From the IMG/VR virus record IMGVR_UViG_3300022841_000001: 20,000 nt of DNA; one strand, given 5' to 3'. Source of the DNA: an uncultured virus (IMG/VR IMGVR_UViG_3300022841_000001). Lineage: Duplodnaviria; Heunggongvirae; Uroviricota; Caudoviricetes; Crassvirales. The notes under the pieces are model-generated. The model had not been told where the DNA came from. It saw only the letters and a list, made by a program, of their open reading frames with translations, and did no database searches. Positions 3,801-20,000 of this stretch are shown here, piece after piece; positions within the stretch are counted from its first letter, which is position 1; each line of letters opens with the position of its first letter. A program made the position numbers and the translations under genes.

Positions 3801-4775
3801 ATGCCAATAAACGAAGTACGAAACACCGTATTAGCTATAGTTAATAAAAATAACTACGGATATATATCGCCACAAGACTTTAACTTATACTGTCAGCAGG
3901 CTCAGATGTCTATATTTGAAGATTATTTTTATGCTTATAACAATCAAATTGTTAAGGAGAATCAGAGAACATCTGGTACAGGATATGCGGATATTACAAA
4001 AGGACTAGTTGAGGTAATTGACGGATTTTCAGCTACACAAACATTAATAAATAATGGAGCAAATTTATTTTCGCTTCCTAGTAACTATTACTTAATCAAC
4101 AAACTAAACTACTACCCTATAATTGTGGCTTCAGGGAATATAACCCTGAATGCTGCTTTTACAATCAATGACACTGGAGCAACTTTTGTAACAAGCGGAG
4201 TTGTAGCAGGTCAATTAGTATCATCTACTTCTAAAGATGGTGTTACGGCTGGTCAGAGCGCATATATAACAAGCGTAAATAGCGAGACCTCACTATCAAT
4301 AACAGTTGACTTATTTTCAAAAGTATCTACTATTGGTGGTTCGTATACTATCGTTCTAGGTAACGGAATAGTTGAAGTTGAAAGAGTTAATCAGCATAAA
4401 ATATTTTACCTAAAGTCATCACCATTAACTTCTCCATCTACTGGTTATCCAGCTTATGTATTAGGTAATGCCACGACTACAGGTTATGGGAATATAATTA
4501 ATGTTTATCCAGAAACTTTAACAACACCGGGAACTATATTTGCACAGTACGTGAGGTACCCTATTGATCCAAAATGGACATACGTTGAGATTGTTTCAGG
4601 CGAGCCTGTATTCTCAGCCTCTCAAGATGACTACCAAGACTTCGAGTTACCCTTATCAGACGAACCTGCTTTAATAGCAAAAATATGTAAGTACGTAGGT
4701 ATTGAAATTAGAGAGCAAGATGTTTTTCAATTTGGTGCAAATGAGTTACAATCAGAACAACAAACACAACGATAA
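3801..4775 (+). CDS. Tail ring/adaptor protein 1 (P22 gp4 / tail tubular A-like), 324 aa
   Basis: N-terminal helical motif (NKNNYGYISPQDFNLYCQQAQ) and C-terminal YVRYPIDPKW...DFELP...LIAKICKYVGIEIRE resemble head-tail connector ring proteins. First gene of the tail block. Confidence 0.65.
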   Translation: MPINEVRNTVLAIVNKNNYGYISPQDFNLYCQQAQMSIFEDYFYAYNNQIVKENQRTSGTGYADITKGLVEVIDGFSATQTLINNGANLFSLPSNYYLINKLNYYPIIVASGNITLNAAFTINDTGATFVTSGVVAGQLVSSTSKDGVTAGQSAYITSVNSETSLSITVDLFSKVSTIGGSYTIVLGNGIVEVERVNQHKIFYLKSSPLTSPSTGYPAYVLGNATTTGYGNIINVYPETLTTPGTIFAQYVRYPIDPKWTYVEIVSGEPVFSASQDDYQDFELPLSDEPALIAKICKYVGIEIREQDVFQFGANELQSEQQTQR

Positions 4776-5699
4776 ATGGCATATATAAATGATTACGCAT
4801 ATTACCAAAATTCAGGTAACGAACCAAAAGATGCAAACTGGGGTTCATATCAGTATGTTTCTCTAGCGGATATCGTTAACAATTTTATGTTAATGTACCA
4901 AGGAAATCACGAGCTGGTAAATAATGTTGACCGTTATCAAGTTTTGTTTCACGCAAAGAGAGGGATTCAGGAGTTGAATTATGATGCAATGAAGGAAATT
5001 AAAATACTTCAATTAGATGTTACACTTCAACTTAGGTTTATACTTCCTCAAGATTATGTGAATTGGGTTAGGATTTCAGTTCATGCTGATGGTGTTTTAA
5101 AACCTCTTACAGAAAATATTCAAACTAACTGGTCAGGGGCTTATCTTCAAGATCACGATGCAAACATATTATTTGATGAAGACGGAAATGTGTTAAAGCC
5201 TGAGAATTCAGAGCTTGATTTAGAAAGAATAACAGGTGGTGAAAAAAGTATTTACCTGAATGATGGGAGTAGGTTTAATGGTTCTGAGGGTTACTGTTGT
5301 GATGGTGACTGGTATTTTGACTATGCAATTGGCGCACGTTTTGGTTTAAATACTGAAACAGCTAATTCAAACCCTACGTTTACAATAGATAAGCAATCAG
5401 GTGTAATTAATTTTAGCAACATCTCAAAAGCAGCATCTGTTGTTTTAGAGTATGTTTCTGATGGCATGGCTGGTGGTGTAGATTCTGAAGTTCAGTTAAA
5501 TAAGTTATTTGAAGAATACATTTATGCTTATGTAAAATACTCAATCCTAAATGGGAAATTAGCTGTTCAGGAATATGTGGTTAATAGAGCAAGAAAAGAT
5601 AAGTCTTCTTTACTTAGAAATGCTAAAATTAGATTAAGTAACATTCACCCTGGAAGACTCTTGCAGAATATGAGAGGCCAGAATAAATGGATAAAATAA
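4776..5699 (+). CDS. Tail ring/adaptor protein 2 (tail tubular A-like paralog), 307 aa
   Basis: HAKRGIQELNYD, ILPQDYVNWVRIS, VVLEYVSDG and EEYIYAYV motifs follow the LPxDY...LEY...helix layout of gp4-like ring proteins. Lies just before the nozzle gene. Confidence 0.62.
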   Translation: MAYINDYAYYQNSGNEPKDANWGSYQYVSLADIVNNFMLMYQGNHELVNNVDRYQVLFHAKRGIQELNYDAMKEIKILQLDVTLQLRFILPQDYVNWVRISVHADGVLKPLTENIQTNWSGAYLQDHDANILFDEDGNVLKPENSELDLERITGGEKSIYLNDGSRFNGSEGYCCDGDWYFDYAIGARFGLNTETANSNPTFTIDKQSGVINFSNISKAASVVLEYVSDGMAGGVDSEVQLNKLFEEYIYAYVKYSILNGKLAVQEYVVNRARKDKSSLLRNAKIRLSNIHPGRLLQNMRGQNKWIK

Positions 5700-5700
5700 T

Positions 5701-8700
5701 ATGCCAATAATTAATACAAACTTTGTTGCAGGTAGAATGAATAAGTCTGTTGACGAGAGACTTTTACCTCCAGGAGAATATATTGACGCACTTAATGTGA
5801 GGTTAGGTTCTACGGAAACTACTGAGATTGGAGCTGTTGAAAATGCAAAGGGTAACTCTAGACTTACAACGCTTAGTTATAAGGGGCAAGATTTAAGTCC
5901 TGCTGCTGTATGTATTGGCGCGTTTCAAGACGGTGTAAGAGAAACTTTGTATTGGTGGGTACACGATGATGAAAACCAAGCTGCCTCTGACGGAGTAGTA
6001 GATATGTTAGTGTCATACAACACGACTAGTCAGGTTATAAATTATCACGTTATTACTGAAGCTTTATTAAATTTTAATACAGATTATTTAATTACAGGAA
6101 TAAGTTTAATTGATGGTTTATTGTTTTGGACAGATGATTTAAATCCACCTAGATATATAAATATTCTTAGAAACTACGACTCTCCAGAGGACGATGTAGA
6201 CAAAATAAAAGAAGAAGACATTAGTGTAATTGTAAAAATCCCTGGTTTTGAAGATGCAGTAGATAACGTAACGCCATTACCCGTGCCTAAAATAACATTG
6301 TTAAATGTTCCGGGTGGAGAAAACTACATTAAAAATAGATTTCTTTGTTTTGCTTATAGGTATAGGTATTCTGATGGGCAGTATAGTGCTACATCATTAT
6401 TTAGTTTACCAGCGTTTTCAGCAAAACCTTTTGATTTTGATACTAAAAACTTTAATAATGCAGGTATGGAAAACCTGTATAATGGAGTCACTGTAGAGTA
6501 TTCTACAGGTAGTAAGAATGTGGTGGAAATTGATTTACTTTTTAAGGACACTAACGCAAATACAATTAATGTAATTGAACGATTTATAAAAGAAGATTAT
6601 GGTTGGGCAGATAATACTATACAATCATACGTTTTTACTAACAGTAAAATATACACTGTTTTAGGTGGAGATGAATTACTTCGACAGTACGATAATGTTC
6701 CTCGTCTAGCTAAGGCTCAGATAATACAAGGAAATCGATTAATGTATGGGAATTATGTTGATGGATATAACTTTACAACAGGTAGTTCTGAGGGTACTAG
6801 AGTGGCTTTAGATTATAACACAAAAATAGTTAACACACCAATACAGTCTCAGGAGTTGCCATTTGCAAGTTTTGGTACAGGACTTACTTACAGTATAGAT
6901 CCTTCAGATAGTAAAAGCTATATAAATAATATCCTTACTTTTGATTTGTCTTTAACAAACGGAAAGTTAATAAAAGGAGCTTTCATTGGTTTCATATTTA
7001 ATATTGAAAGTGAAGGAACTGCAGTAGGTTCCGGTCAGAGTGATAATCCTGCATGGTTAGCAAATGATCAGTTTAAAAATGCTAATTTTACTTTAGAGGT
7101 AAACATTACTTTAGATGATGATTACTCTTCAACGTATGATTTTCTTACTAGCGCTTTATTTCAAAATGCTATAGGAACAATTCTTAATACTAATTTTAAC
7201 CCATTGTCTACATCGGATCAAGGTTCTTCTTTGACTGATTTTTTTAACAATGAATTATCATCACCGTCAACTTCTTTTCAATTTTCTAAAACAAACAGTG
7301 GTGTTACTAGTTCTGTAATACAGCAGGGTTTTTTACTATCTGGTATATCTCCTGGGTCTGATACTTTTAATATACAGATTATAGGTATGCAGTATCAAAA
7401 CACAGATACAACACCCACAACTACAGATATTTACGAATATTTTAGATTTGTTAGTGGTGAAGCTGGTTTTAGTAATACGGTAAATACTGGTAGCTTACAT
7501 AGTAACAGAGATTATGAAACAGGTATTGTTTATAGTGATGGTTTCGGTAGGTCTTCTACGGTTTTAGTTTCGGAAAGAAATACAGTTTATGTAGAGCCAG
7601 GAAATAGTGATACCCAAAATACAATACAAGTAGCATTAAGTTCTCTTGCTCCATACTGGGCTGAGAGATACAAGTTTGTTGTTAAACCAAGTTTAGCAAA
7701 TTATGAAGTTATATACACTAATCTTTATTACGTAAGGCCTAGTGATAATATGGTTTTCTTTAAACTGGAGGGAGATAATGTAAATAAAGTAACAAAGGGT
7801 CAAACCCTAATAATAAAAGCAGATGTTTCAGGGCCTCTATCAAGACTTGAAAAAGCTGAAGTATTAGAAGTTCAGGCTGAGGCTAGGGACTTCTTGGCGC
7901 TAAGTAGTGAGTTAGGTGAAGATTCTAATCAACTAGCAGGTTTATACATGCAAATGAAAAACCAAAATTTCGACATTGTTATACCTGAAGATTCTGTAAT
8001 AGAATATGGAGAAATGGTTGTTAGGTCATCAAGTAACGGATGTACTTCTGGTAGAAAAATAGCTTATCCTTGCTACACTCAAGATGTGGTAGGTGATAGT
8101 TCTGCTACAACTAATTACACTGTTCCTGCTGGTTCATCTGTAAAAGTAAAAGTAAGAGCTTTTCGTAACGATACTTTTAATGGTAGAAGTTGCCAGGAAA
8201 TATTATGGGAATGGGATCAGCAATATATTTCAAGCGATGACTATTTAGATTTAAGAAAATGGTGGGTTGGAGATAATATAAATCCTGTAATTGCAGACCC
8301 AGGAAACTTGTCGGATGAAACAACTATAAATTACATTCAGTCTTTAGCGAATCCAAGTGGTACTCCTGGAAATGATATACTTGATACTAAGGGTGTTGCG
8401 GACAATGTTGAATGTGAAAGTTTTGAAGTAACATTTCAGTGGATACAAGGTGATTCTCAATCGGCTGATGACCCATTGTATTTAGGTGTAAGTTCAGGAA
8501 TGCACGGATGCTATAGACCTACACAGTCAAATAGAACTGCAGATCTTCATGTTGAGTTAATTGTTCAAAGAGCAAATACTTTAATGGTTTTTGAAAGCGA
8601 GCCTTTAGATGCGGATGCTGAACTATACTATGATGCTTCTGAATCTTTTCCTATTACACAGCCTGAAGGATTTCATTTGTCAGGAAATAATATTGGTTTA

Positions 8701-10509
8701 GGAGACCAAGACCAAACATCAAGTGTTGATGCTGTAGTTAATTTAAATTTCCAAGACTGTTTTACTTTTGGTAATGGGGTTGAGAGTTTTAAAATAAAAG
8801 ATTCATTAGCTGGTAGAGCTATGGTTTTAGGCCAAAGAGTATTAGCTGTATCTAATCAAGATTACAAAGAAGCTGATAGGTTTGAGGGTATTACTTATAG
8901 TGGAGTTTACAGTAGTAATAGTGGTGTCAATAATCTTAATGAATTTAATTTAGGATTGGCAAACTTTAAAGACTGCGAAACTATATTTGGCCCAATACAA
9001 AAAATGCATGCTCGTGAAACTGATATACTTGTTCTTCAAGAAGATAGAATAACTTACGTATTATCAAGTAAAAATTTAATTAGCGACAGTACTGGTGGAG
9101 GAGTTATCGCATCTGTTCCTCAAGTACTTGGAACTCAGATAGCTAGAATAGAAGAATATGGTATTAGTTATAATCCTGAAAGTTTTGCTTCTTGGGGTTC
9201 TGATATGTTTTTCACTGATGTAAAAAGAGGTGCTGTTCTAAAGCTTAGAGGTACTAGTAGAAATAATGATTCGTTAGAAGTTATATCTTCTAATGGAATG
9301 AGGTCATATTTTAGAGATCAGTTTCACGAATCAATACAGACTCAGAAGTTAGGAGGATACGATCCTTATATGAATGAATATGTATTAGGAATGAACTGTA
9401 CTGAGATACCTTTACCTCCAGAGGTTTCAGCTTGTGGATATACTCTTCAGAAAAACAATTTATTAAAAGACTCTGTAATAGTATCAACTATAGATTATGG
9501 CGCTGTAATTGGTGAGTCTAATATTTCTTATACTATTGCATCAGGTGGAAGTATAACTATTTCTTCTTTATGGAATGGTATTACTACTACTAGTGGCTTG
9601 CTAACAGGTAATGGTGTATTCTCTTTTGATAAAACATTAAACACTCCTAGAAACGCTGTGGTAACGATTACTGCAATAACAGATTCTTCTTTTAATATAA
9701 CAGCTGATTGCCCTACGGAAGTTCCTATAGAAGTTATAAAGGTGGTAATGAATTCTTCAGTAGATGCAAATGATTTTATACACACTGAATATAAATGGAA
9801 TAATTTAGTTGTAGTTAGTCCTATTGATTCGAGTCTTTCAACTCTTGGAAGTAATAATAAAATTGCATCTAATTATGTTTCTCAAATAGGAATTAGGTCT
9901 TTAGGTGTTTTTCCTTATAGTGGTACAGATATTACTATCAGGTCTAATAAGATTAATTTTGATGATTATGATTGGGTTGTTAATAGTGATAACTTTAAAT
10001 ACCTATCTAGTGATGTTTTGTTTTCGAATAACGAAGCAGATATAAATACTTTATTATCAACATCGGTAACAATACCAAACAATGAAGTATCAAATCCTTC
10101 AATTGGATTGTATGAGGCTATTGTTCCTGGATTAGATCTACCAATAAATAATAAATATTTATATTTGATTTATGATTACAGAGAAACTAGTTGTCAGGAA
10201 TTTTGTTATGACCCAGTTTCAGCTTCAGCAGCTTGTTGTGAATGTACTATTTCGTATACAGCATACCAAAGTAGCTCAATACAACAGAACAATAAAGTTG
10301 TTTGTGGTCAGCCTTTAATACAGACTTTCTATCATACAGGAACCGGTTCATTACCAGTTATAGGTGACTTTGTTTACTCATCATCAATTGGCCAACCTGG
10401 AACAACATTAGCTCTTGGGCTATACCAGATTAGTGGAACGGATTATATAACAGTAAATAAATTTGGACTAGTTACAAAGGTAACTACTTGTCCAGTAAAT
10501 CAAGTTTAA
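5701..10509 (+). CDS. Tail nozzle/muzzle (P22 gp10 / tail tubular B-like) main part with Cys-rich C-terminal extension, 1602 aa
   Basis: N-terminal GRMNKSVDERLLPPGEYIDALNVR, LLFWTDDLNPPRYIN, FAYRYRYSDGQYS, GNRLMYGNYVDGY, YGISYNPESFA, FFTDVKRGAVLKL and LGGYDPY are recalled hallmarks of crAss-like/phi38:1-like tail stabilization proteins. Confidence 0.75.
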   Translation: MPIINTNFVAGRMNKSVDERLLPPGEYIDALNVRLGSTETTEIGAVENAKGNSRLTTLSYKGQDLSPAAVCIGAFQDGVRETLYWWVHDDENQAASDGVVDMLVSYNTTSQVINYHVITEALLNFNTDYLITGISLIDGLLFWTDDLNPPRYINILRNYDSPEDDVDKIKEEDISVIVKIPGFEDAVDNVTPLPVPKITLLNVPGGENYIKNRFLCFAYRYRYSDGQYSATSLFSLPAFSAKPFDFDTKNFNNAGMENLYNGVTVEYSTGSKNVVEIDLLFKDTNANTINVIERFIKEDYGWADNTIQSYVFTNSKIYTVLGGDELLRQYDNVPRLAKAQIIQGNRLMYGNYVDGYNFTTGSSEGTRVALDYNTKIVNTPIQSQELPFASFGTGLTYSIDPSDSKSYINNILTFDLSLTNGKLIKGAFIGFIFNIESEGTAVGSGQSDNPAWLANDQFKNANFTLEVNITLDDDYSSTYDFLTSALFQNAIGTILNTNFNPLSTSDQGSSLTDFFNNELSSPSTSFQFSKTNSGVTSSVIQQGFLLSGISPGSDTFNIQIIGMQYQNTDTTPTTTDIYEYFRFVSGEAGFSNTVNTGSLHSNRDYETGIVYSDGFGRSSTVLVSERNTVYVEPGNSDTQNTIQVALSSLAPYWAERYKFVVKPSLANYEVIYTNLYYVRPSDNMVFFKLEGDNVNKVTKGQTLIIKADVSGPLSRLEKAEVLEVQAEARDFLALSSELGEDSNQLAGLYMQMKNQNFDIVIPEDSVIEYGEMVVRSSSNGCTSGRKIAYPCYTQDVVGDSSATTNYTVPAGSSVKVKVRAFRNDTFNGRSCQEILWEWDQQYISSDDYLDLRKWWVGDNINPVIADPGNLSDETTINYIQSLANPSGTPGNDILDTKGVADNVECESFEVTFQWIQGDSQSADDPLYLGVSSGMHGCYRPTQSNRTADLHVELIVQRANTLMVFESEPLDADAELYYDASESFPITQPEGFHLSGNNIGLGDQDQTSSVDAVVNLNFQDCFTFGNGVESFKIKDSLAGRAMVLGQRVLAVSNQDYKEADRFEGITYSGVYSSNSGVNNLNEFNLGLANFKDCETIFGPIQKMHARETDILVLQEDRITYVLSSKNLISDSTGGGVIASVPQVLGTQIARIEEYGISYNPESFASWGSDMFFTDVKRGAVLKLRGTSRNNDSLEVISSNGMRSYFRDQFHESIQTQKLGGYDPYMNEYVLGMNCTEIPLPPEVSACGYTLQKNNLLKDSVIVSTIDYGAVIGESNISYTIASGGSITISSLWNGITTTSGLLTGNGVFSFDKTLNTPRNAVVTITAITDSSFNITADCPTEVPIEVIKVVMNSSVDANDFIHTEYKWNNLVVVSPIDSSLSTLGSNNKIASNYVSQIGIRSLGVFPYSGTDITIRSNKINFDDYDWVVNSDNFKYLSSDVLFSNNEADINTLLSTSVTIPNNEVSNPSIGLYEAIVPGLDLPINNKYLYLIYDYRETSCQEFCYDPVSASAACCECTISYTAYQSSSIQQNNKVVCGQPLIQTFYHTGTGSLPVIGDFVYSSSIGQPGTTLALGLYQISGTDYITVNKFGLVTKVTTCPVNQV

Positions 10510-14129: not shown

Positions 14130-16187
14130 ATGGCAGAAAATAAAAGTACACCACAGGCATCAAATAAATATTCTATTTACGCTCAGAGAAATGTAGAAAG
14201 CACTCAAGTTGACTGGTCTAAAATAGCCAGTACTTTAACTAAAGGAGCTGAATCAATCAGAGATGAGAGGCAAGGTCGTAAAGACGCTATAGACGTAGCT
14301 ACTCAGGATTCAATGGAGCAGCTTAGTAAGGTTGAAGATGTAAATAATCAAGATGCTGCTAGTTTACTTATTGATGGCTCAAGTATGTCTACTGAGTCTC
14401 TCAGAGTTCAATCAAATATGCTGAAACGTGGTTTAATAAAGCCAAAAGATTTTAAGCTTTTTATGCAACAACAAAAAAATGGGTATTCAAATTTAAACAC
14501 AGCTGTAAAGGGCTGGGATAAATGGGCTACACAAGCAACTGAAAGGTTGGCTATTGCAAAAGCTACAAGTTCACCTATAGCAAGTGAGTTAGAGATTGAA
14601 TTAAACAAACAGCTAGAAGGTTTAGGTAACTTAAAGAATAAAAAACTATGGACTAATCCTGTAAATGGCCAAATGCAGTTGGTTACTATGGGTAAGAATA
14701 AGGATGGCATCTATAATGTTATGCCTGATTACAATACTGAAAAAGAAAAGTTTCAGAATCCAAACACTATGAATAACTTGATGAAGTTTAAGTTAGATAG
14801 GTTTGATATGAAGTCTGCGACAAAAAGAATTACAGACCAAACTGCTACAATTATAACTGCATACGAAGGTAATTATAATGTTTTATCAGGTGGTGGAGCG
14901 ATATATTCAAAAGAAAGTTTTAGACAGTTAGGTAAATTTGGAAAAGATTCAAATGGCAAAAAGCTAACATTTAAAGACTGGAAAGAAAACGAGATTGATG
15001 CTGTTGTTGGTAGCTCTTCAGAGACTAATAATTCTAATGCCGGTCAAGTGCTTGCTGGTAGAGGTTACAAATATGCTAGAACTAAAAAACAATTTAAGTC
15101 TCAGTATCCAAATCTTGATGAAAAATTCTTTATTCCTTACGAAACAATTTCAGGAAGACCAGAAATTACATTAACTTCTGCTCAACAAAAAGAGGCTAGA
15201 AATTTTGTAAACAATCAAATTGAAGCTGGTATCGATGATAAATTAACAATATCTTCTGCTAAGGCTGGTCAACAAAAAAGACAAGACACAACAAACACCA
15301 CTGATATAAATGATGCGAAAAACAGAAGGGTTGCATATGCTGGTGATTTAAATAACCTTATGTCTGGGGACTCAGGAAAAGCTTCTGCTGTTGGTGAGGA
15401 TAGAATAGTAGACATGAACAAAAGATTCAAAGAGTCTAAAAGTCAGTCAACTAAAGAGATACAAAAAATATCAAGAAACGCTGACGAGTTTGTTATCAAA
15501 CAAAAAGAGAAAGGAAAAGATATATCTGTTAAAATACAGAGGTATGAAAAGGATGGTAAAGGTGGGTATGATTCTTCTAGACCAAGACCAGCAAAAGAAA
15601 TAGCGAGAGAGCTTTACAGGCAAATACTTCCTGCTGATGCTACTGATATGTCATTTGATCAATTTTATCAAGATGCCATAGATGATGGGTTTAGTTTTAC
15701 TCCAAGAATGATTGATAATGGTAGTGGTACTATGGTTCCTAACCCTGATTACAAAGGTGATGAAACTACTTCTACTACTGAAAACATAAGACCAATTGAA
15801 TTATATTCTTCAGGGAGTGATTATACTGATTTAAACTTCACGAAAACATTAGCTGATGAGTACGCTTTAATACCTAAAGGTAGAGATAATTTTGAAGCGG
15901 CTACTCCTGTTGTAATGAAATCAGTTGAAAGAGGTTTATCTGCAATACCTGGAGCTAGAGGTATCACAGTGACCAGTAACGATGTAAGATTTGATAGTAC
16001 TAACGAGATTATTGTAAACTTCAATAACCCAGTTACTGGGAAGCCTGATAAAAAAGTTTTTAAATTTAATGAAGACACAACTAAACTTCAAGGAGATGTT
16101 GATGTTTTTATTAATGAGCAAATACAATTGTACAACGATTCAATAGGAAGTGATATAAAAGGAAACGCATCAAGATTTAATAAATAA
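14130..16187 (+). CDS. Putative internal virion/ejection protein (gp15-like position), 685 aa
   Basis: Hydrophilic, Cys-free, helical N-terminal half. Lies between the small and the giant ejection-like genes. Confidence 0.5.
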   Translation: MAENKSTPQASNKYSIYAQRNVESTQVDWSKIASTLTKGAESIRDERQGRKDAIDVATQDSMEQLSKVEDVNNQDAASLLIDGSSMSTESLRVQSNMLKRGLIKPKDFKLFMQQQKNGYSNLNTAVKGWDKWATQATERLAIAKATSSPIASELEIELNKQLEGLGNLKNKKLWTNPVNGQMQLVTMGKNKDGIYNVMPDYNTEKEKFQNPNTMNNLMKFKLDRFDMKSATKRITDQTATIITAYEGNYNVLSGGGAIYSKESFRQLGKFGKDSNGKKLTFKDWKENEIDAVVGSSSETNNSNAGQVLAGRGYKYARTKKQFKSQYPNLDEKFFIPYETISGRPEITLTSAQQKEARNFVNNQIEAGIDDKLTISSAKAGQQKRQDTTNTTDINDAKNRRVAYAGDLNNLMSGDSGKASAVGEDRIVDMNKRFKESKSQSTKEIQKISRNADEFVIKQKEKGKDISVKIQRYEKDGKGGYDSSRPRPAKEIARELYRQILPADATDMSFDQFYQDAIDDGFSFTPRMIDNGSGTMVPNPDYKGDETTSTTENIRPIELYSSGSDYTDLNFTKTLADEYALIPKGRDNFEAATPVVMKSVERGLSAIPGARGITVTSNDVRFDSTNEIIVNFNNPVTGKPDKKVFKFNEDTTKLQGDVDVFINEQIQLYNDSIGSDIKGNASRFNK

Positions 16188-16192
16188 GAACA

Positions 16193-19100
16193 ATGAACGA
16201 AGAAGCTTTTGAATATGCTTACAGTCTTTTTACTCAAGATGGATATACAGGAACAATAGATGATTACAGGTCTTTAGTATCTAGCGATACTGATGCTGTA
16301 TCTCATTCTTATGAGTTATTTAAAAAAGATAAATACTCAGGTTCAAGAGAGGATTTTGAGCAATTGTTAAAACCTGAAAAAAAAAATCAAGTCGACACCG
16401 TGGAGGAAACTTCAGATGGGGTGGAGGAAGTTACGGAATCGTTACAAAAAAATGGATCTTCGGATTCTTTAGGTCAAGAAGATAATGTACCTAAAATAAA
16501 AGTAGAGCAAGATGTAATTACTGATAGTTCTATAAATGGTATTGATGTAGAAAAACAAGACTTTGATAAATTTGTAAGTGATGAAGAGGAGATAAAGAAA
16601 CAAACTGAAGACCCATTTTCTTATTCTATGAATATTGTAGATGAGGCTTTAATAAATGGTAGCGAGGAGAATGCTGTTCCTTTAATGAATTATCACTTTA
16701 ATCAATATGGTTTTAAATTTAAAGAGTCAGATATACTTGGTGATGGTATGGTTGTTAGTTCAGCATCACTTGATGAGAATGGAAAAAGAAAAGAACTTAG
16801 AGTAAACCTTGACCCATTTTCTGGATTTGGAGACAAGGAAGAGAAGGAAGCATTACAGAATTTTTTAAACGAGAACAAAGAAAACAGCAGGAAACTTCAG
16901 TCTGCTGAGAAAGGATACGCTAATTTAGAAAGAAAAATTACTGACCAAAAAGGAATAGACTCCTCATTAAATTCACTTAATACCAAAGCAAATGTTTTTC
17001 GGCAAGAAGTGCAAGGATGGTTAAAAGGTAACGCTGAGTTAAAAAAAAGAACAGAGTTTTTCGATGGATTATCTCAAGACGAAATAAATGACCCTAAAAT
17101 AAGAGATGCTTTTAACTTATACATATCAGATACCAATAAGTCAGAAGCATTAAAGAAAAAAATATTAGCTACTGAATCTGAATTAAGGGATTCGGGTAGA
17201 GCTTTAGACCAAACAATGGGGCGTTATTCTGAGATGAAATCTGCTTCAGGAAACATGTCATCAGCTTCTTTGAATGCTATATGGTCTGGAATTGGAAGGA
17301 TGGGTTCAAGTGCAATGAATTATGTCACTGACTTTATTGTAAACACAGGAGAGTTTGGAGGCGCAAGTCCTATAGGTTACAAGAAATTGTATATGGATAC
17401 AGCGAAGAAAATGTTTGCGACAAAGAAATCTGACGATATACACGACTTAGAAACTCCTAACGAAAACAACGAAACAAGTAAAGGTAAGTGGAATAGTTAT
17501 CTTGAAAATTTAACTGACGAGCAAAAAGACAAAGTAAGCGCTAAGACTAAAGATATTTTAGCAAAGGATAGAAAGTTTGACATCTACGACTTTAATGAAG
17601 ATGGAGGTGCTGATTTAAAAGAGATTCCATCAGGAAGTAGATACTCTGATTACGCTAGAAAACAAAATGTAAAAAATCTTAGTAAGGACTCAATGGTAGA
17701 GCTTGCTAGAACGGCTCCTGTAAAATCATTTGGTGATGACGATGCCAGTGTAGAGTACAGCGACTTAGTGAAAGAAGGTTTTTGGGGAGGAGCGTACCTT
17801 GGATTAATGGAATCGTTACCAGCTATGGCAGGCCCTTCGGGAAAAGCAGGTTTAGTAATGAGGACAGCTTCTATGTTTGGTCAAGTTTCTGACCACGTAA
17901 ACGAAGAGATGTTTAAGAATCCTGAATTTGCAGATATTTCTGAGAACGAAAAACTAACTGTTGCTATTCCTTTAGGTATAACTGTAGGTGTTCTTGAGAC
18001 TATTGGTTTTAGGAATGTAGTGCAACAAAAAGGACTTATCAATAAGGTTTTATTAAAAGCTATAGGAAAGTATACTGGAGCAAAACAAGTGTCTAAGAGA
18101 GGGTTTACGGACGTTGTTCGTCAAGAGGTTGACGGAATGTTAGCTCGTGGTGTCCTTACCTTGGCTGCTGGTGGTGTTGCTGAATTTGAAACAGGTGCTG
18201 CACAAGAGATTGCGGATATTGGTATAAAAGCTATATACAATGGTGCTAAAGAGAAGGATATGTTTCAGACTCCTGAAAGTATCAAGGATGGAATAAACCA
18301 AGTTCTTAAAGCAGGTGCGCAAGAGATGGTTGGTGGCTGGATAATGAGTACTCCTGGAGCAATGATAAACGCTGCTACTTCTAAGGATTTTACTCGTTTA
18401 GATAATGGTGTGTTCGAGGTTTTTGAGGATATGATAGATGATGGTACTTCTACCAAGTTGATAAACATAAAATTAAAAGAGCAAATAAACGCAGGTGTAA
18501 TTACTGCCAGTGAAGCAAAAGAGCAAGAAGCTATTTTTAATAAGTTAAAAGGAGTCTACACTCAGATTCCTAGTGACTATTCTACAGATCAAAAAAAGAA
18601 AGCTTTAGGTCTATTGTTGAATAGACAAGGTTTAGAGCAATCTATAGAAGGTAAAGATGATGCTACGGTTAAGCCAGTAAAAAGAAAAATTGATGAGATA
18701 AACGATTTACTTGAGGAAATAAGTAATAATGCTTACGAATCTAATGAGGCAACTACTGTAGGTCGTGTTGAGGAGGACGAGATTATTGATGAAGAAATTA
18801 AATTAGAAACACCAAACCCAGAAAAAGATGGAATACAAGAGCAAGGCACAGATGGAGTGGATGCAAAAGAACCTACCGGAAGTAGCGAGGAGATCGAACC
18901 AGGAACCACAGATGACAGAACTACCGGAAAGAGTGATACCGAAATCGAAAACGAAAGCAGGGAAAAGGCCGAGAAGGAAATAGAAGTACTAGAGTTTAAG
19001 GAGAAAGATTTACAAGTAAAGTTAAAAGAAATAGCACAGAACGGAACTTCTCCTGAGACTGAAAACGGTCAATTATTTGATAAGGTTTCAGATGAATTGA

Positions 19101-20000
19101 TTGAAGTAATTTCTGAAATTAAAAAAGCAAAAGATAATTTATTAAATCAAAAAGAAAATAAGGAGGTTGCAGAAATTGAAGAGGATATAGATGTTGTTGA
19201 AATTAAACCTACAAAAAAACTTAAGAACGATTTTAAAAACAATAAGCTTAGCTATTTTGACAGAGTCGGAATGCTTTTTGCTATTGCAATAAAAAAGAAG
19301 AACAAGAAAAAGTTAACTAGTTTTGAGGATACACTTTTCTCTAGCTCAGATTCTGCTTTAGTTAATGATATTCTTATTGAGGTAGATGAACGTGCAAGTT
19401 CTCAGTCACAAAGAAGACCATATGTAAAACCTGATTTTGATGTATTAGGAAAGAATCAAGAGGAACAAGACCAGCAAGAGGCAGAGGATTTTGATGCGTT
19501 ATTAAATCCTGATTCAAAAGTAGAGTCAGACATTGATAATCTTCCTACAGCAGAGCTTGAGTTAATGAATGGTGAGACTGTTAAAATCAATCAAGAATCC
19601 AAGAACCTCGTCTTTACAAAGAAAGGAAAGGATGCTTCTACAGGTACAGATCTTACTACTAAGATTTTAAAGCAGGCGCAACAAGCAGCCAAAGCTATTG
19701 CAAAAATATTTCCAAGTATCACAATAATGGTGCATAGGGATAGTGAAATATATGACACTCTAGACCCTGATAAAAATTCTAGAGGACTATATGACCCTGC
19801 AACAAACACTGTTCACATAAATTTAACCAATGGTAAGGCAGACTCAAAAACTGTTGCTCACGAGGTGTTTCATGCAGTGTTGCTTAACAAGTTAAAAATG
19901 AACAATAAGGCAGCAATTGCTGCTACTAAGAAAATGGTTCAAGCCTTGTCTAGGTCAAAAACTTTAGACAAGAATACTAGAATAGCTTTAAAGAATTTTG
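16193..20000 (+). CDS. Giant internal virion/ejection (polyvalent) protein with zincin metallopeptidase motif, >1269 aa, 3'-truncated
   Basis: Manually translated. ATG at 16193 (MNEEAFEYAYSLF...) stays open to the window end and is absent from the ORF track because no stop is reached. Has Gly-rich hydrophobic segments (~17777-18380) and RGLYDP...VHINL...TVAHEVFH (HExxH at 19859-19873). Confidence 0.85.
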   Translation, partial: MNEEAFEYAYSLFTQDGYTGTIDDYRSLVSSDTDAVSHSYELFKKDKYSGSREDFEQLLKPEKKNQVDTVEETSDGVEEVTESLQKNGSSDSLGQEDNVPKIKVEQDVITDSSINGIDVEKQDFDKFVSDEEEIKKQTEDPFSYSMNIVDEALINGSEENAVPLMNYHFNQYGFKFKESDILGDGMVVSSASLDENGKRKELRVNLDPFSGFGDKEEKEALQNFLNENKENSRKLQSAEKGYANLERKITDQKGIDSSLNSLNTKANVFRQEVQGWLKGNAELKKRTEFFDGLSQDEINDPKIRDAFNLYISDTNKSEALKKKILATESELRDSGRALDQTMGRYSEMKSASGNMSSASLNAIWSGIGRMGSSAMNYVTDFIVNTGEFGGASPIGYKKLYMDTAKKMFATKKSDDIHDLETPNENNETSKGKWNSYLENLTDEQKDKVSAKTKDILAKDRKFDIYDFNEDGGADLKEIPSGSRYSDYARKQNVKNLSKDSMVELARTAPVKSFGDDDASVEYSDLVKEGFWGGAYLGLMESLPAMAGPSGKAGLVMRTASMFGQVSDHVNEEMFKNPEFADISENEKLTVAIPLGITVGVLETIGFRNVVQQKGLINKVLLKAIGKYTGAKQVSKRGFTDVVRQEVDGMLARGVLTLAAGGVAEFETGAAQEIADIGIKAIYNGAKEKDMFQTPESIKDGINQVLKAGAQEMVGGWIMSTPGAMINAATSKDFTRLDNGVFEVFEDMIDDGTSTKLINIKLKEQINAGVITASEAKEQEAIFNKLKGVYTQIPSDYSTDQKKKALGLLLNRQGLEQSIEGKDDATVKPVKRKIDEINDLLEEISNNAYESNEATTVGRVEEDEIIDEEIKLETPNPEKDGIQEQGTDGVDAKEPTGSSEEIEPGTTDDRTTGKSDTEIENESREKAEKEIEVLEFKEKDLQVKLKEIAQNGTSPETENGQLFDKVSDELIEVISEIKKAKDNLLNQKENKEVAEIEEDIDVVEIKPTKKLKNDFKNNKLSYFDRVGMLFAIAIKKKNKKKLTSFEDTLFSSSDSALVNDILIEVDERASSQSQRRPYVKPDFDVLGKNQEEQDQQEAEDFDALLNPDSKVESDIDNLPTAELELMNGETVKINQESKNLVFTKKGKDASTGTDLTTKILKQAQQAAKAIAKIFPSITIMVHRDSEIYDTLDPDKNSRGLYDPATNTVHINLTNGKADSKTVAHEVFHAVLLNKLKMNNKAAIAATKKMVQALSRSKTLDKNTRIALKNF
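16377..16485 (+). other. Candidate programmed -1 frameshift/transcriptional slippage site and trans-frame ORF
   Basis: A10 run (16377-16386) and hairpin (16396-16423). The -1 frame opens right after TGA 16375-16377 and reads KKKSSRHRGGNFRWGGGSYGIVTKKWIFGFFRSRR* to TAA 16483-16485. Confidence 0.5.
18828..18983 (+). CDS. Nested +1-frame small basic protein (51 aa) inside the giant gene
   Basis: MEYKSKAQMEWMQKNLPEVARRSNQEPQMTELPERVIPKSKTKAGKRPRRK*. A-rich upstream region with A at -3. Host-frame codon usage is locally atypical. Resembles the small phage 'MPFKSKAQ..WM..N.PE.A' family. Confidence 0.6.
   Translation: MEYKSKAQMEWMQKNLPEVARRSNQEPQMTELPERVIPKSKTKAGKRPRRK

Follow-up and report, generated by a model that had tools for sequence, protein, structure and literature searches.

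Only a small number of same-strand nested genes have been recognised in phages, and most of these are believed to be products of overprinting, in which an old gene gains a new frame. The lysis genes Rz and Rz1 of phage lambda are embedded in this way, with the small gene lying wholly inside the larger one in its +1 frame and both having their own starts; the usual view is that Rz1 originated inside Rz, and the products of the two genes cooperate. Giant multidomain phage proteins, 'polyvalent' or injected, are an established concept as well, and to our knowledge no out-of-frame gene has been described within the linkers of such proteins. Here, a nested open reading frame (ORF) was analysed in a stretch of 20,000 nucleotides from an uncultured virus of the Crassvirales (IMG/VR record IMGVR_UViG_3300022841_000001), the whole of which is referred to as the window. 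The ORF lies within a giant gene, and the favoured reading, held with somewhat better than even confidence, is that it is an orthologous copy of a family of small phage proteins, read in the +1 frame of the giant gene probably from its own start, and a candidate small nucleic-acid-binding or packaging protein. The features of the locus are as follows.

18828-18983, plus strand: nested +1-frame ORF of 51 codons and a TAG stop, as obtained by translation, encoding a basic peptide with a net charge of +8 and an isoelectric point (pI) of 10.5.
18804-18806, plus strand: closing TAG of the +1 frame, seven codons 5' of the nested ATG, as read from the sequence.
18808-18827, plus strand: A-rich, weakly structured stretch 5' of the nested ATG, presumed to be a start context of the kind that lacks a Shine-Dalgarno sequence.
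18827-18985, plus strand: host-frame reading of the overlap, an acidic low-complexity linker of 53 codons with a net charge of -12 and a pI of 4.1.
16193-19999, plus strand: giant host gene, an ORF for a virion- or cargo-type protein, open at its 3' end and of at least 1269 amino acids inside the window.

The nested ORF begins at host codon 879, in frame +1 relative to 16193-19999, and translation gave the same ATG at 18828, the same TAG ending at 18983 and the same 51-residue peptide as a preliminary description made from the sequence alone. The same 156 bases would be read twice, yielding an acidic disordered interdomain linker in the giant frame and the basic peptide in the +1 frame. As with lambda Rz/Rz1, the nested gene is situated wholly inside a larger phage gene and in its +1 frame. 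Unlike Rz/Rz1, and in departure from the usual nested genes, its family also comprises stand-alone genes of thousands of phages, the host frame evolves without constraint across the overlap in the clade of the window, and the arrangement recurs in unrelated giant genes for virion or injected proteins.

The nested ORF was judged real because of homology and not because of length. When the two alternative sense frames of all 12 window genes were searched for ORFs starting with ATG, 215 were counted, three of them of at least 51 amino acids (63, 58 and 51) and six of at least 40; the nested ORF is the third-longest +1 ORF of the window, and its length alone is not beyond chance. The longest alternative-frame ORF of the window (6305-6496, plus strand; 63 codons) is located inside ORF 5701-10509, in the +1 frame of this structural gene of 1602 amino acids.

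The window peptide was compared by phmmer with 1.84 billion protein representatives at a cut-off of E<=0.001, and four matches were obtained, of which two were genuine and two (P0003 and P0004) were tandem-repeat junk. The genuine ones were P0002 (51 amino acids, 55% identity in an ungapped alignment over residues 1-51, E 4e-7) and P0005 (58 amino acids, E 1.6e-4), respectively. For a test independent of the window, a hidden Markov model was built from 33 unique stand-alone peptides only and run over 463 six-frame segments; the nested ORF was found at E 2.7e-10 (35.9 bits, profile positions 1-50), whereas the runner-up segment reached E 1.9. The difference between these two E values, together with the ungapped, full-length match to P0002 of the same length, refutes a chance ORF in a stop-poor frame, to which only a negligible probability is given although two longer +1 ORFs exist in the window and one of these, without homologues, is also kept in the close relative L077 (see below).

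The family was defined by an alignment, A3, of 64 members, the profile of which matched 3,429 clusters of proteins of 22-142 amino acids at E<=0.001. Its hallmarks are the N-terminus M-P-Y-K-S-K-A-Q, a two-helix hairpin, the motif L-P-x-[RK]-[VA] and a Lys/Arg tail, within a length of 41-81 amino acids. The small-phage-protein pattern M-P-[FY]-K-S-x-A-Q, which the preliminary description had put forward, is real and was seen both in P0002 and in the stand-alone profile. The window peptide has seven of the eight residues M1-P2-Y3-K4-S5-K6-A7-Q8, residue 2 being Glu (Gln in L077), and also carries L-P-x-[RK]-[VA] and the basic tail (L32, P33, R35, V36 and K39). By its homology, the nested ORF is considered to be a genuine orthologous copy of an unnamed, widespread family of basic phage proteins of 40-80 residues. 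Stand-alone homologues, which had been expected to exist, were found in viral loci (38 of 73, see below), in the above 3,429 clusters and in one cultured phage, as gene 48 of Streptomyces phage FlowerPower (YP_009838084.1; 72 amino acids, annotated as hypothetical protein, 48-51 bits on the profile), a stand-alone gene between a 'peptidase' and a holin. The window copy shares with this protein the N-terminal motif, the length class, L-P-x-R-V, the basic tail and the profile match, and differs from it in being nested and in being without Pro2 and Trp23.

No matching family was found in Pfam for the 64 members of A3, and no solved structure in the PDB matched the family profile in a sequence search. 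Among the 120 family matches listed, none had a Pfam domain and the source names were all 'hypothetical protein' except one. A collection of some 15 billion proteins does not contain the exact window peptide, which also matched no Pfam family at E<=10, PF11450 included. In PHROGs, it matched only phrog_18036 (E 0.071 across 14 residues); the same PHROG reached E 0.003 on G001, a fragment of 21.3 kb identical to the window in this region, but control genomes were matched too, and the link was rejected. A tblastn search of phages with the peptide gave a single spurious match (E 5), a word-index protein search gave no candidate, and pattern scans of viral and metagenome contigs with the host region or the window peptide gave no relative; a scan with A2 found none in metagenomes and, in viral contigs, only the L077 contig again. 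DUF3008 (PF11450), which comprises small viral proteins of similar size, was the nearest named cluster in a feature search of the ESM Atlas (score 0.84, 37% of members PF11450). Membership in it was rejected, with none of the 64 family members matching at E<=0.1 and an Atlas score below 0.9 being only a lead.

For the arrangement in relatives, IMG/VR was scanned with P0002, and 73 viral loci were obtained, with the family ORF inside a giant ORF in 35 and stand-alone in 38, a ratio that is no frequency estimate since the patterns were taken from one member. One locus, L009, was scored as nested although the contig end cuts its upstream side. At all 35 nested loci the peptide is in the host +1 frame, and the host frame is open for 51-1273 codons upstream and up to about 2050 codons downstream of the nested ORF, as limited by the flanks. 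Over the overlap, the host frame is stop-free in 29 of 29 unique nested peptides, while the equivalent frame of the 33 stand-alone peptides holds 3.76 stops on average and is stop-free in five. At the 17 nested loci printed, the host-frame reading opens in every case with [DN]-[AG]-[LIV]-Q, which is best regarded as the off-frame image of the conserved peptide N-terminus; the family was thus present in the +1 frame of 'DA(I/V)QEQST'-like linkers of other giant phage proteins, where the preliminary description had proposed to look for it.

The host genes of the nested copies are not one family. The window host resembles the hosts of L003-L026; that of L035 (guanine-plus-cytosine content (GC) 0.63) has a DarB-like antirestriction C-terminal region (phrog_10089, E 2e-52), and that of L038 has a ddrB-ParB domain (PF18763, E 2e-22) directly past the overlap. 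Complete host ORFs in the records of three relatives are of 2963, 2734 and 2085 amino acids. In this size of 2085-2963 amino acids, and with one DarB-like C-terminus and one ddrB-ParB domain among them, the hosts are like polyvalent proteins; unlike these, the window host is without a recognised domain. A peptide tree (63 rows, 57 columns, poorly resolved) placed the window and L077 as a pair (support 100/96) within a clade of 20 rows that are all nested (89/96). The label nested or stand-alone needs six changes on this tree, of which at least three are forced by well-supported branches. Searches of the GenBank phages revealed no nested copy in a cultured phage, and tblastn with the L054 and L035 peptides gave no match there.

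Stand-alone copies have terminase subunit, portal, adaptor, scaffold and virion structural genes as neighbours in many loci, and methyltransferase, endolysin or replication genes in others. In seven loci the stand-alone copy is directly 3' of a giant ORF of 984-1993 amino acids, and in the crAss-like L051 it is between homologues of the window genes 3801-4775 and 4776-5699. As separate observations on two loci, the stand-alone gene 6001-6165 of L031 (L031:4811-6896) is between ORFs matching the terminase large subunit phrog_2 at profile positions 204-464 and 480-616, respectively, and the terminase gene seems to be split by roughly 460 inserted bases, which bear the small gene and have no Rfam intron match (Rfam gave no match on the window, L028, L031 or L040). 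The giant gene L059:2883-5987, directly upstream of the L059 stand-alone copy, is homologous over about 1000 amino acids (26%, E 3e-63) to the L068 host, in the part that lies downstream of the nested copy as judged by comparison with the L054 and L068 host ORFs; relatives therefore carry the small gene and the giant domain in permuted order.

Selection in the two frames was estimated from the 16 unique nucleotide sequences of the 51-codon clade (the window and L003-L022; 120 pairs). The numbers of variable sites at the three peptide codon positions were 22, 28 and 42, each of 51, and the ratio of nonsynonymous to synonymous differences per site (pN/pS) was 0.23 for the peptide reading and 1.00 for the host reading, two values that are not independent of each other because the frames overlap. 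Because of these two ratios and the excess of third-position changes, the peptide frame is the constrained one within the clade, with the host frame only kept open and evolving without amino-acid constraint. The preliminary description had supposed that the +1 frame is under selection, which is what the clade shows. It had also supposed that the small gene was absorbed into the giant one, whose linker is its off-frame reading; since selection acts on the +1 frame, the host linker does look like such an off-frame reading, but the direction implied by 'absorbed' is not fixed by the data.

The reverse dependence would make the linker motif [DN]-A-[LIV]-Q-[KE]-Q-S-[TA] of the giant proteins the conserved element and the similarity of the peptides its by-product. 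The host-frame start of the overlap is indeed recognisably similar at all 17 nested loci printed, but in stand-alone homologues, at least one stop closes the equivalent frame in 28 of 33, and the clade ratios point to the peptide frame, which makes this explanation highly improbable. In the out-of-frame remodelled gene families of PMC8788219, existing coding sequence becomes part of another protein through a new reading frame. The clade of the window differs from these families in that the original frame is still under purifying selection and both readings persist. In the literature searches run on the motif, crAss-like overlapping genes, polyvalent proteins and embedded phage genes, no prior description was found.

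Ribosomes most likely initiate internally and independently at the ATG of the peptide itself on the late mRNA, as suggested by a start context that is A-rich and unstructured like those at the other gene starts of the phage. The A fraction of the 20 bases before the nested ATG is 0.60, within the top 2.4% of 459 ATGs, and the 12 gene starts average 0.53, in agreement with the similarity to other starts that had been pointed out. The folding energy of the start region is -2.6 kcal/mol (top 3.9% of ATGs), and those of the 12 gene starts range from -1.0 to -6.5 kcal/mol. All 31 unique nested sequences have the ATG, and stand-alone members use the same Met as their first residue. Both of the two GC-rich nested loci (GC >= 0.50; L035 and L041) carry GAGGAG or GAGGTG six bases 5' of the ATG, similar motifs being carried by GC-rich stand-alone copies, and the AT-rich nested copies, that of the window included, have A-rich upstream runs.

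A +1 frameshift or slippage could instead give a shortened giant protein of about 880 amino acids with a basic tail, and no separate small protein. This is suggested by P0006 (254 amino acids, from a contig of 972 bases), which runs in frame from a homologue of the host upstream part into the family peptide and ends there, and by the C-terminal position of the family module in five of 110 longer proteins (see below). Against it stand the universal ATG and its use as the start of stand-alone members, and before the ATG only 4-30 codons of the +1 frame are open in the relatives and seven in the window, where entry from the host frame is possible only within the 21 bases between the TAG at 18804-18806 and the ATG. 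By inspection of the upstream sequences printed, no shift-prone motif is shared in these 4-30 open codons, and a -1 slippery heptamer (X_XXY_YYZ) for leaving the peptide frame is present in only three of 31 unique nested sequences, that of the window not among them. Met is still found at the junction in four of the five C-terminal fusions, and P0006, known here from its protein sequence only, would equally be explained by a one-base error in a short contig. A transframe product is thus considered very improbable. About 95 residues before the family peptide, P0006 also has a host-frame stretch resembling the host-frame motif at the overlap start. A frameshift introduced by sequencing or assembly was excluded by the arrangement being kept in relatives and by an indel-free contig of 50.5 kb from another run.

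Whether the favoured reading, a translated family copy, still applies to the window itself depends on a few close sequences. L077 is the only close relative, its host being 86% identical in the 400 amino acids before the overlap and 96% after it. The preliminary description had named loss of the ATG or of the open frame in close relatives as grounds for refutation; both are kept in L077, together with the 51 codons and the stop, and in the 98.8%-identical strain contig of 50.5 kb, from a different salt-lake run, which differs by 12 substitutions over 1001 bases, without any indel. The peptide of L077 shares 37 of 51 residues with that of the window.

Several observations weigh against a working gene in the window. 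Among the sequencing runs consulted, no RNA run was listed as containing the stretch. In the overlap, the window and L077 differ at 25 nucleotides, distributed 8/10/7 over the peptide codon positions, with pN/pS values of 1.18 (peptide frame) and 0.56 (host frame), and the overlap divergence of 0.16 is near the synonymous rate of the flank (0.18). Pro2, which is present in 62 of 62 other members, and Trp23, present in 55 of these 62 and followed by Asp/Asn-Lys in the second helix, are replaced in both copies (positions 23-25 being Ser-Asn-Gln), and so are the usual His13, Asp24 and Lys25. On the stand-alone profile the two copies reach 36-39 bits, and the nearest host relatives 54-66. A control +1 ORF of 58 amino acids at 14998-15174, inside ORF 14130-16187, is likewise open in L077, where its ATG and its stop are unchanged and its nucleotides 80% identical, and in a simulation the nested ORF survived 25 random substitutions 14.6% of the time if the host frame had to stay open. 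The control was used as an ORF without homologues, its peptide not having been searched against the large protein databases. The +1 frames of this genome stay open easily, and the fact that L077 keeps the nested ORF counts for little because the control ORF is equally kept and because of the survival in the simulation. By eye, the control peptide is far less conserved in L077 than the nested one, with about half of the residues kept.

These observations allow the view that the family and the arrangement are real but that the +1 ORF has ceased to work as a gene in the sub-lineage of the window and L077, where the sequence would persist as an open linker needed by the giant protein, in a +1 frame that is stop-poor by composition. 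The loss of Pro2 and Trp23, the low profile scores (those of L025 and L026 are slightly lower still), the near-neutral divergence and the equally kept control all fit such a relic. On the other side, the core residues Y3, K4, S5, K6, A7, Q8, L32, P33, R35, V36 and K39 are intact in both copies, as is W11 by inspection, and the 14 of 51 residues that differ in L077 avoid conserved columns, falling on those variable in the family (permutation P 0.006). Against the L003-L021 group, the peptide frame of the window gives pN 0.23-0.31 and pS 0.52-0.85, and as pN is well below pS, constraint was in force for most of the branch of the window. The start context is like those of real gene starts. Only two changes of the 50.5-kb contig fall inside the ORF, one synonymous and one R21K in the peptide frame, which turns the residue into the usual one of the family, and the near-neutral estimate comes from one pair with 25 differences. 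A relic is accordingly possible but unlikely. In the favoured reading the peptide may continue to function in a lineage with Pro2 and Trp23 replaced; judged from its residues the window copy is an atypical family member, and the constraint on it was long-lasting but may recently have been relaxed or have changed in kind.

The base composition of the overlap is also unusual. Its GC is 0.47 versus 0.35 window-wide, and the sudden use of unusual codons that had been noticed in the host frame was borne out: eight of the 53 host codons in the overlap (GGC, ACC four times, ATC twice and GCC) are rare elsewhere in the host ORF, and by its rare-codon content the overlap ranks 24th among 1216 sliding windows of that ORF.

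A further, rather doubtful extension of the family reading is a cassette, composed of the small gene with its off-frame linker, which has repeatedly entered, or moved between, giant injected-protein genes, and the two products of which are functionally coupled. It is proposed because of the at least three changes on the tree (six by parsimony), the constant frame relation and the similar run of about 20 bases in AT-rich copies. If it were true, the peptide (+8) could bind or mask the linker (-12) or mark the giant protein for packaging, and a gene would have a new way to persist, inside the linker of another gene. As to the run itself, AT-rich nested copies of different peptide subfamilies (L003-L026, L037-L039, L047 and L054) have before the ATG a similar stretch of the form A/T-T-A-A-A-A ... 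G-A-A-x-A-A-G, with the host-frame reading I/L-K-T/S-x-Q/E; the stretch could equally be a start signal, belong to a host motif or point to a cassette moving as a unit.

For the structure of the peptide, AlphaFold2 was run on the 64-sequence alignment A3, and a model with a confidence score (pLDDT, predicted local distance difference test) of 82.4 was obtained, with helices at 6-15 and 17-24 followed by an extended basic tail. Foldseek of this model against viral predicted structures gave no match at E<=0.001. A module of about 45 residues corresponding to the family is held in frame by 110 longer proteins (P0127-P0236, up to 1554 amino acids), N-terminally in 93, internally in 12 and C-terminally in five, and nearly all of the internal copies are without Met. 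Its partner domains there are NUDIX, SNF2 helicase, SLT, SET, DUF6321, Hva1_TUDOR and EncFtn-like. A targeting or docking role fits because the module heads 93 of the 110 proteins. From the charge, the predicted hairpin and the gene neighbourhood, the family is tentatively taken as a small nucleic-acid-binding or virion/packaging-associated protein or a docking module, with a likelihood well short of even. If the favoured reading is correct, a small gene is overlooked here by gene callers, the acidic 'linker' of giant phage proteins is the by-product of a hidden gene, and a widespread unnamed module of about 45 residues exists both alone and N-terminal to NUDIX, SNF2, SLT and SET domains.

The window comprises 12 ORFs, all on one strand under translation table 11; stop-codon recoding was considered and found unnecessary, since these ORFs tile the window under this table. 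ORF 12027-12845 matches PF25729, the C-terminal domain of the crassvirus muzzle protein, in Pfam (E 3e-14), and five ORFs match PHROGs annotated as virion structural protein (E 8e-104 to 6e-215, 1e-51 and 4e-38), one weak third-ranked PHROG match (2.8e-6) also being among the virion-structural matches. Because of the muzzle domain and these five matches, the window is interpreted as a structural block of a crAss-like phage. The host ORF 16193-19999 had no sequence match in Pfam, PHROGs or PDB; neither of the two host proteins run against PDB sequences had a match, and blastn of 18000-19999 against the GenBank phages gave no match. Its part upstream of the overlap is 51% identical to the L003 host across 915 amino acids, and its downstream part 60% across 180 amino acids. 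An H-E-x-x-H motif at 19859-19873 (host residue 1223), about 290 residues past the nested ORF, could be a zincin-type metallopeptidase site, for which Pfam and PHROGs gave no support. On the minus strand, an antisense ORF of 100 codons at 14408-14710, inside gene 14130-16187, is the sole one of at least 100 amino acids in the window and is probably due to chance. A stretch of 39 bases at 19103-19141 is matched with seven differences by otherwise unrelated contigs of 1.6-2.7 kb and higher depth from three salt-lake runs, and these matches are probably a short low-complexity coincidence.

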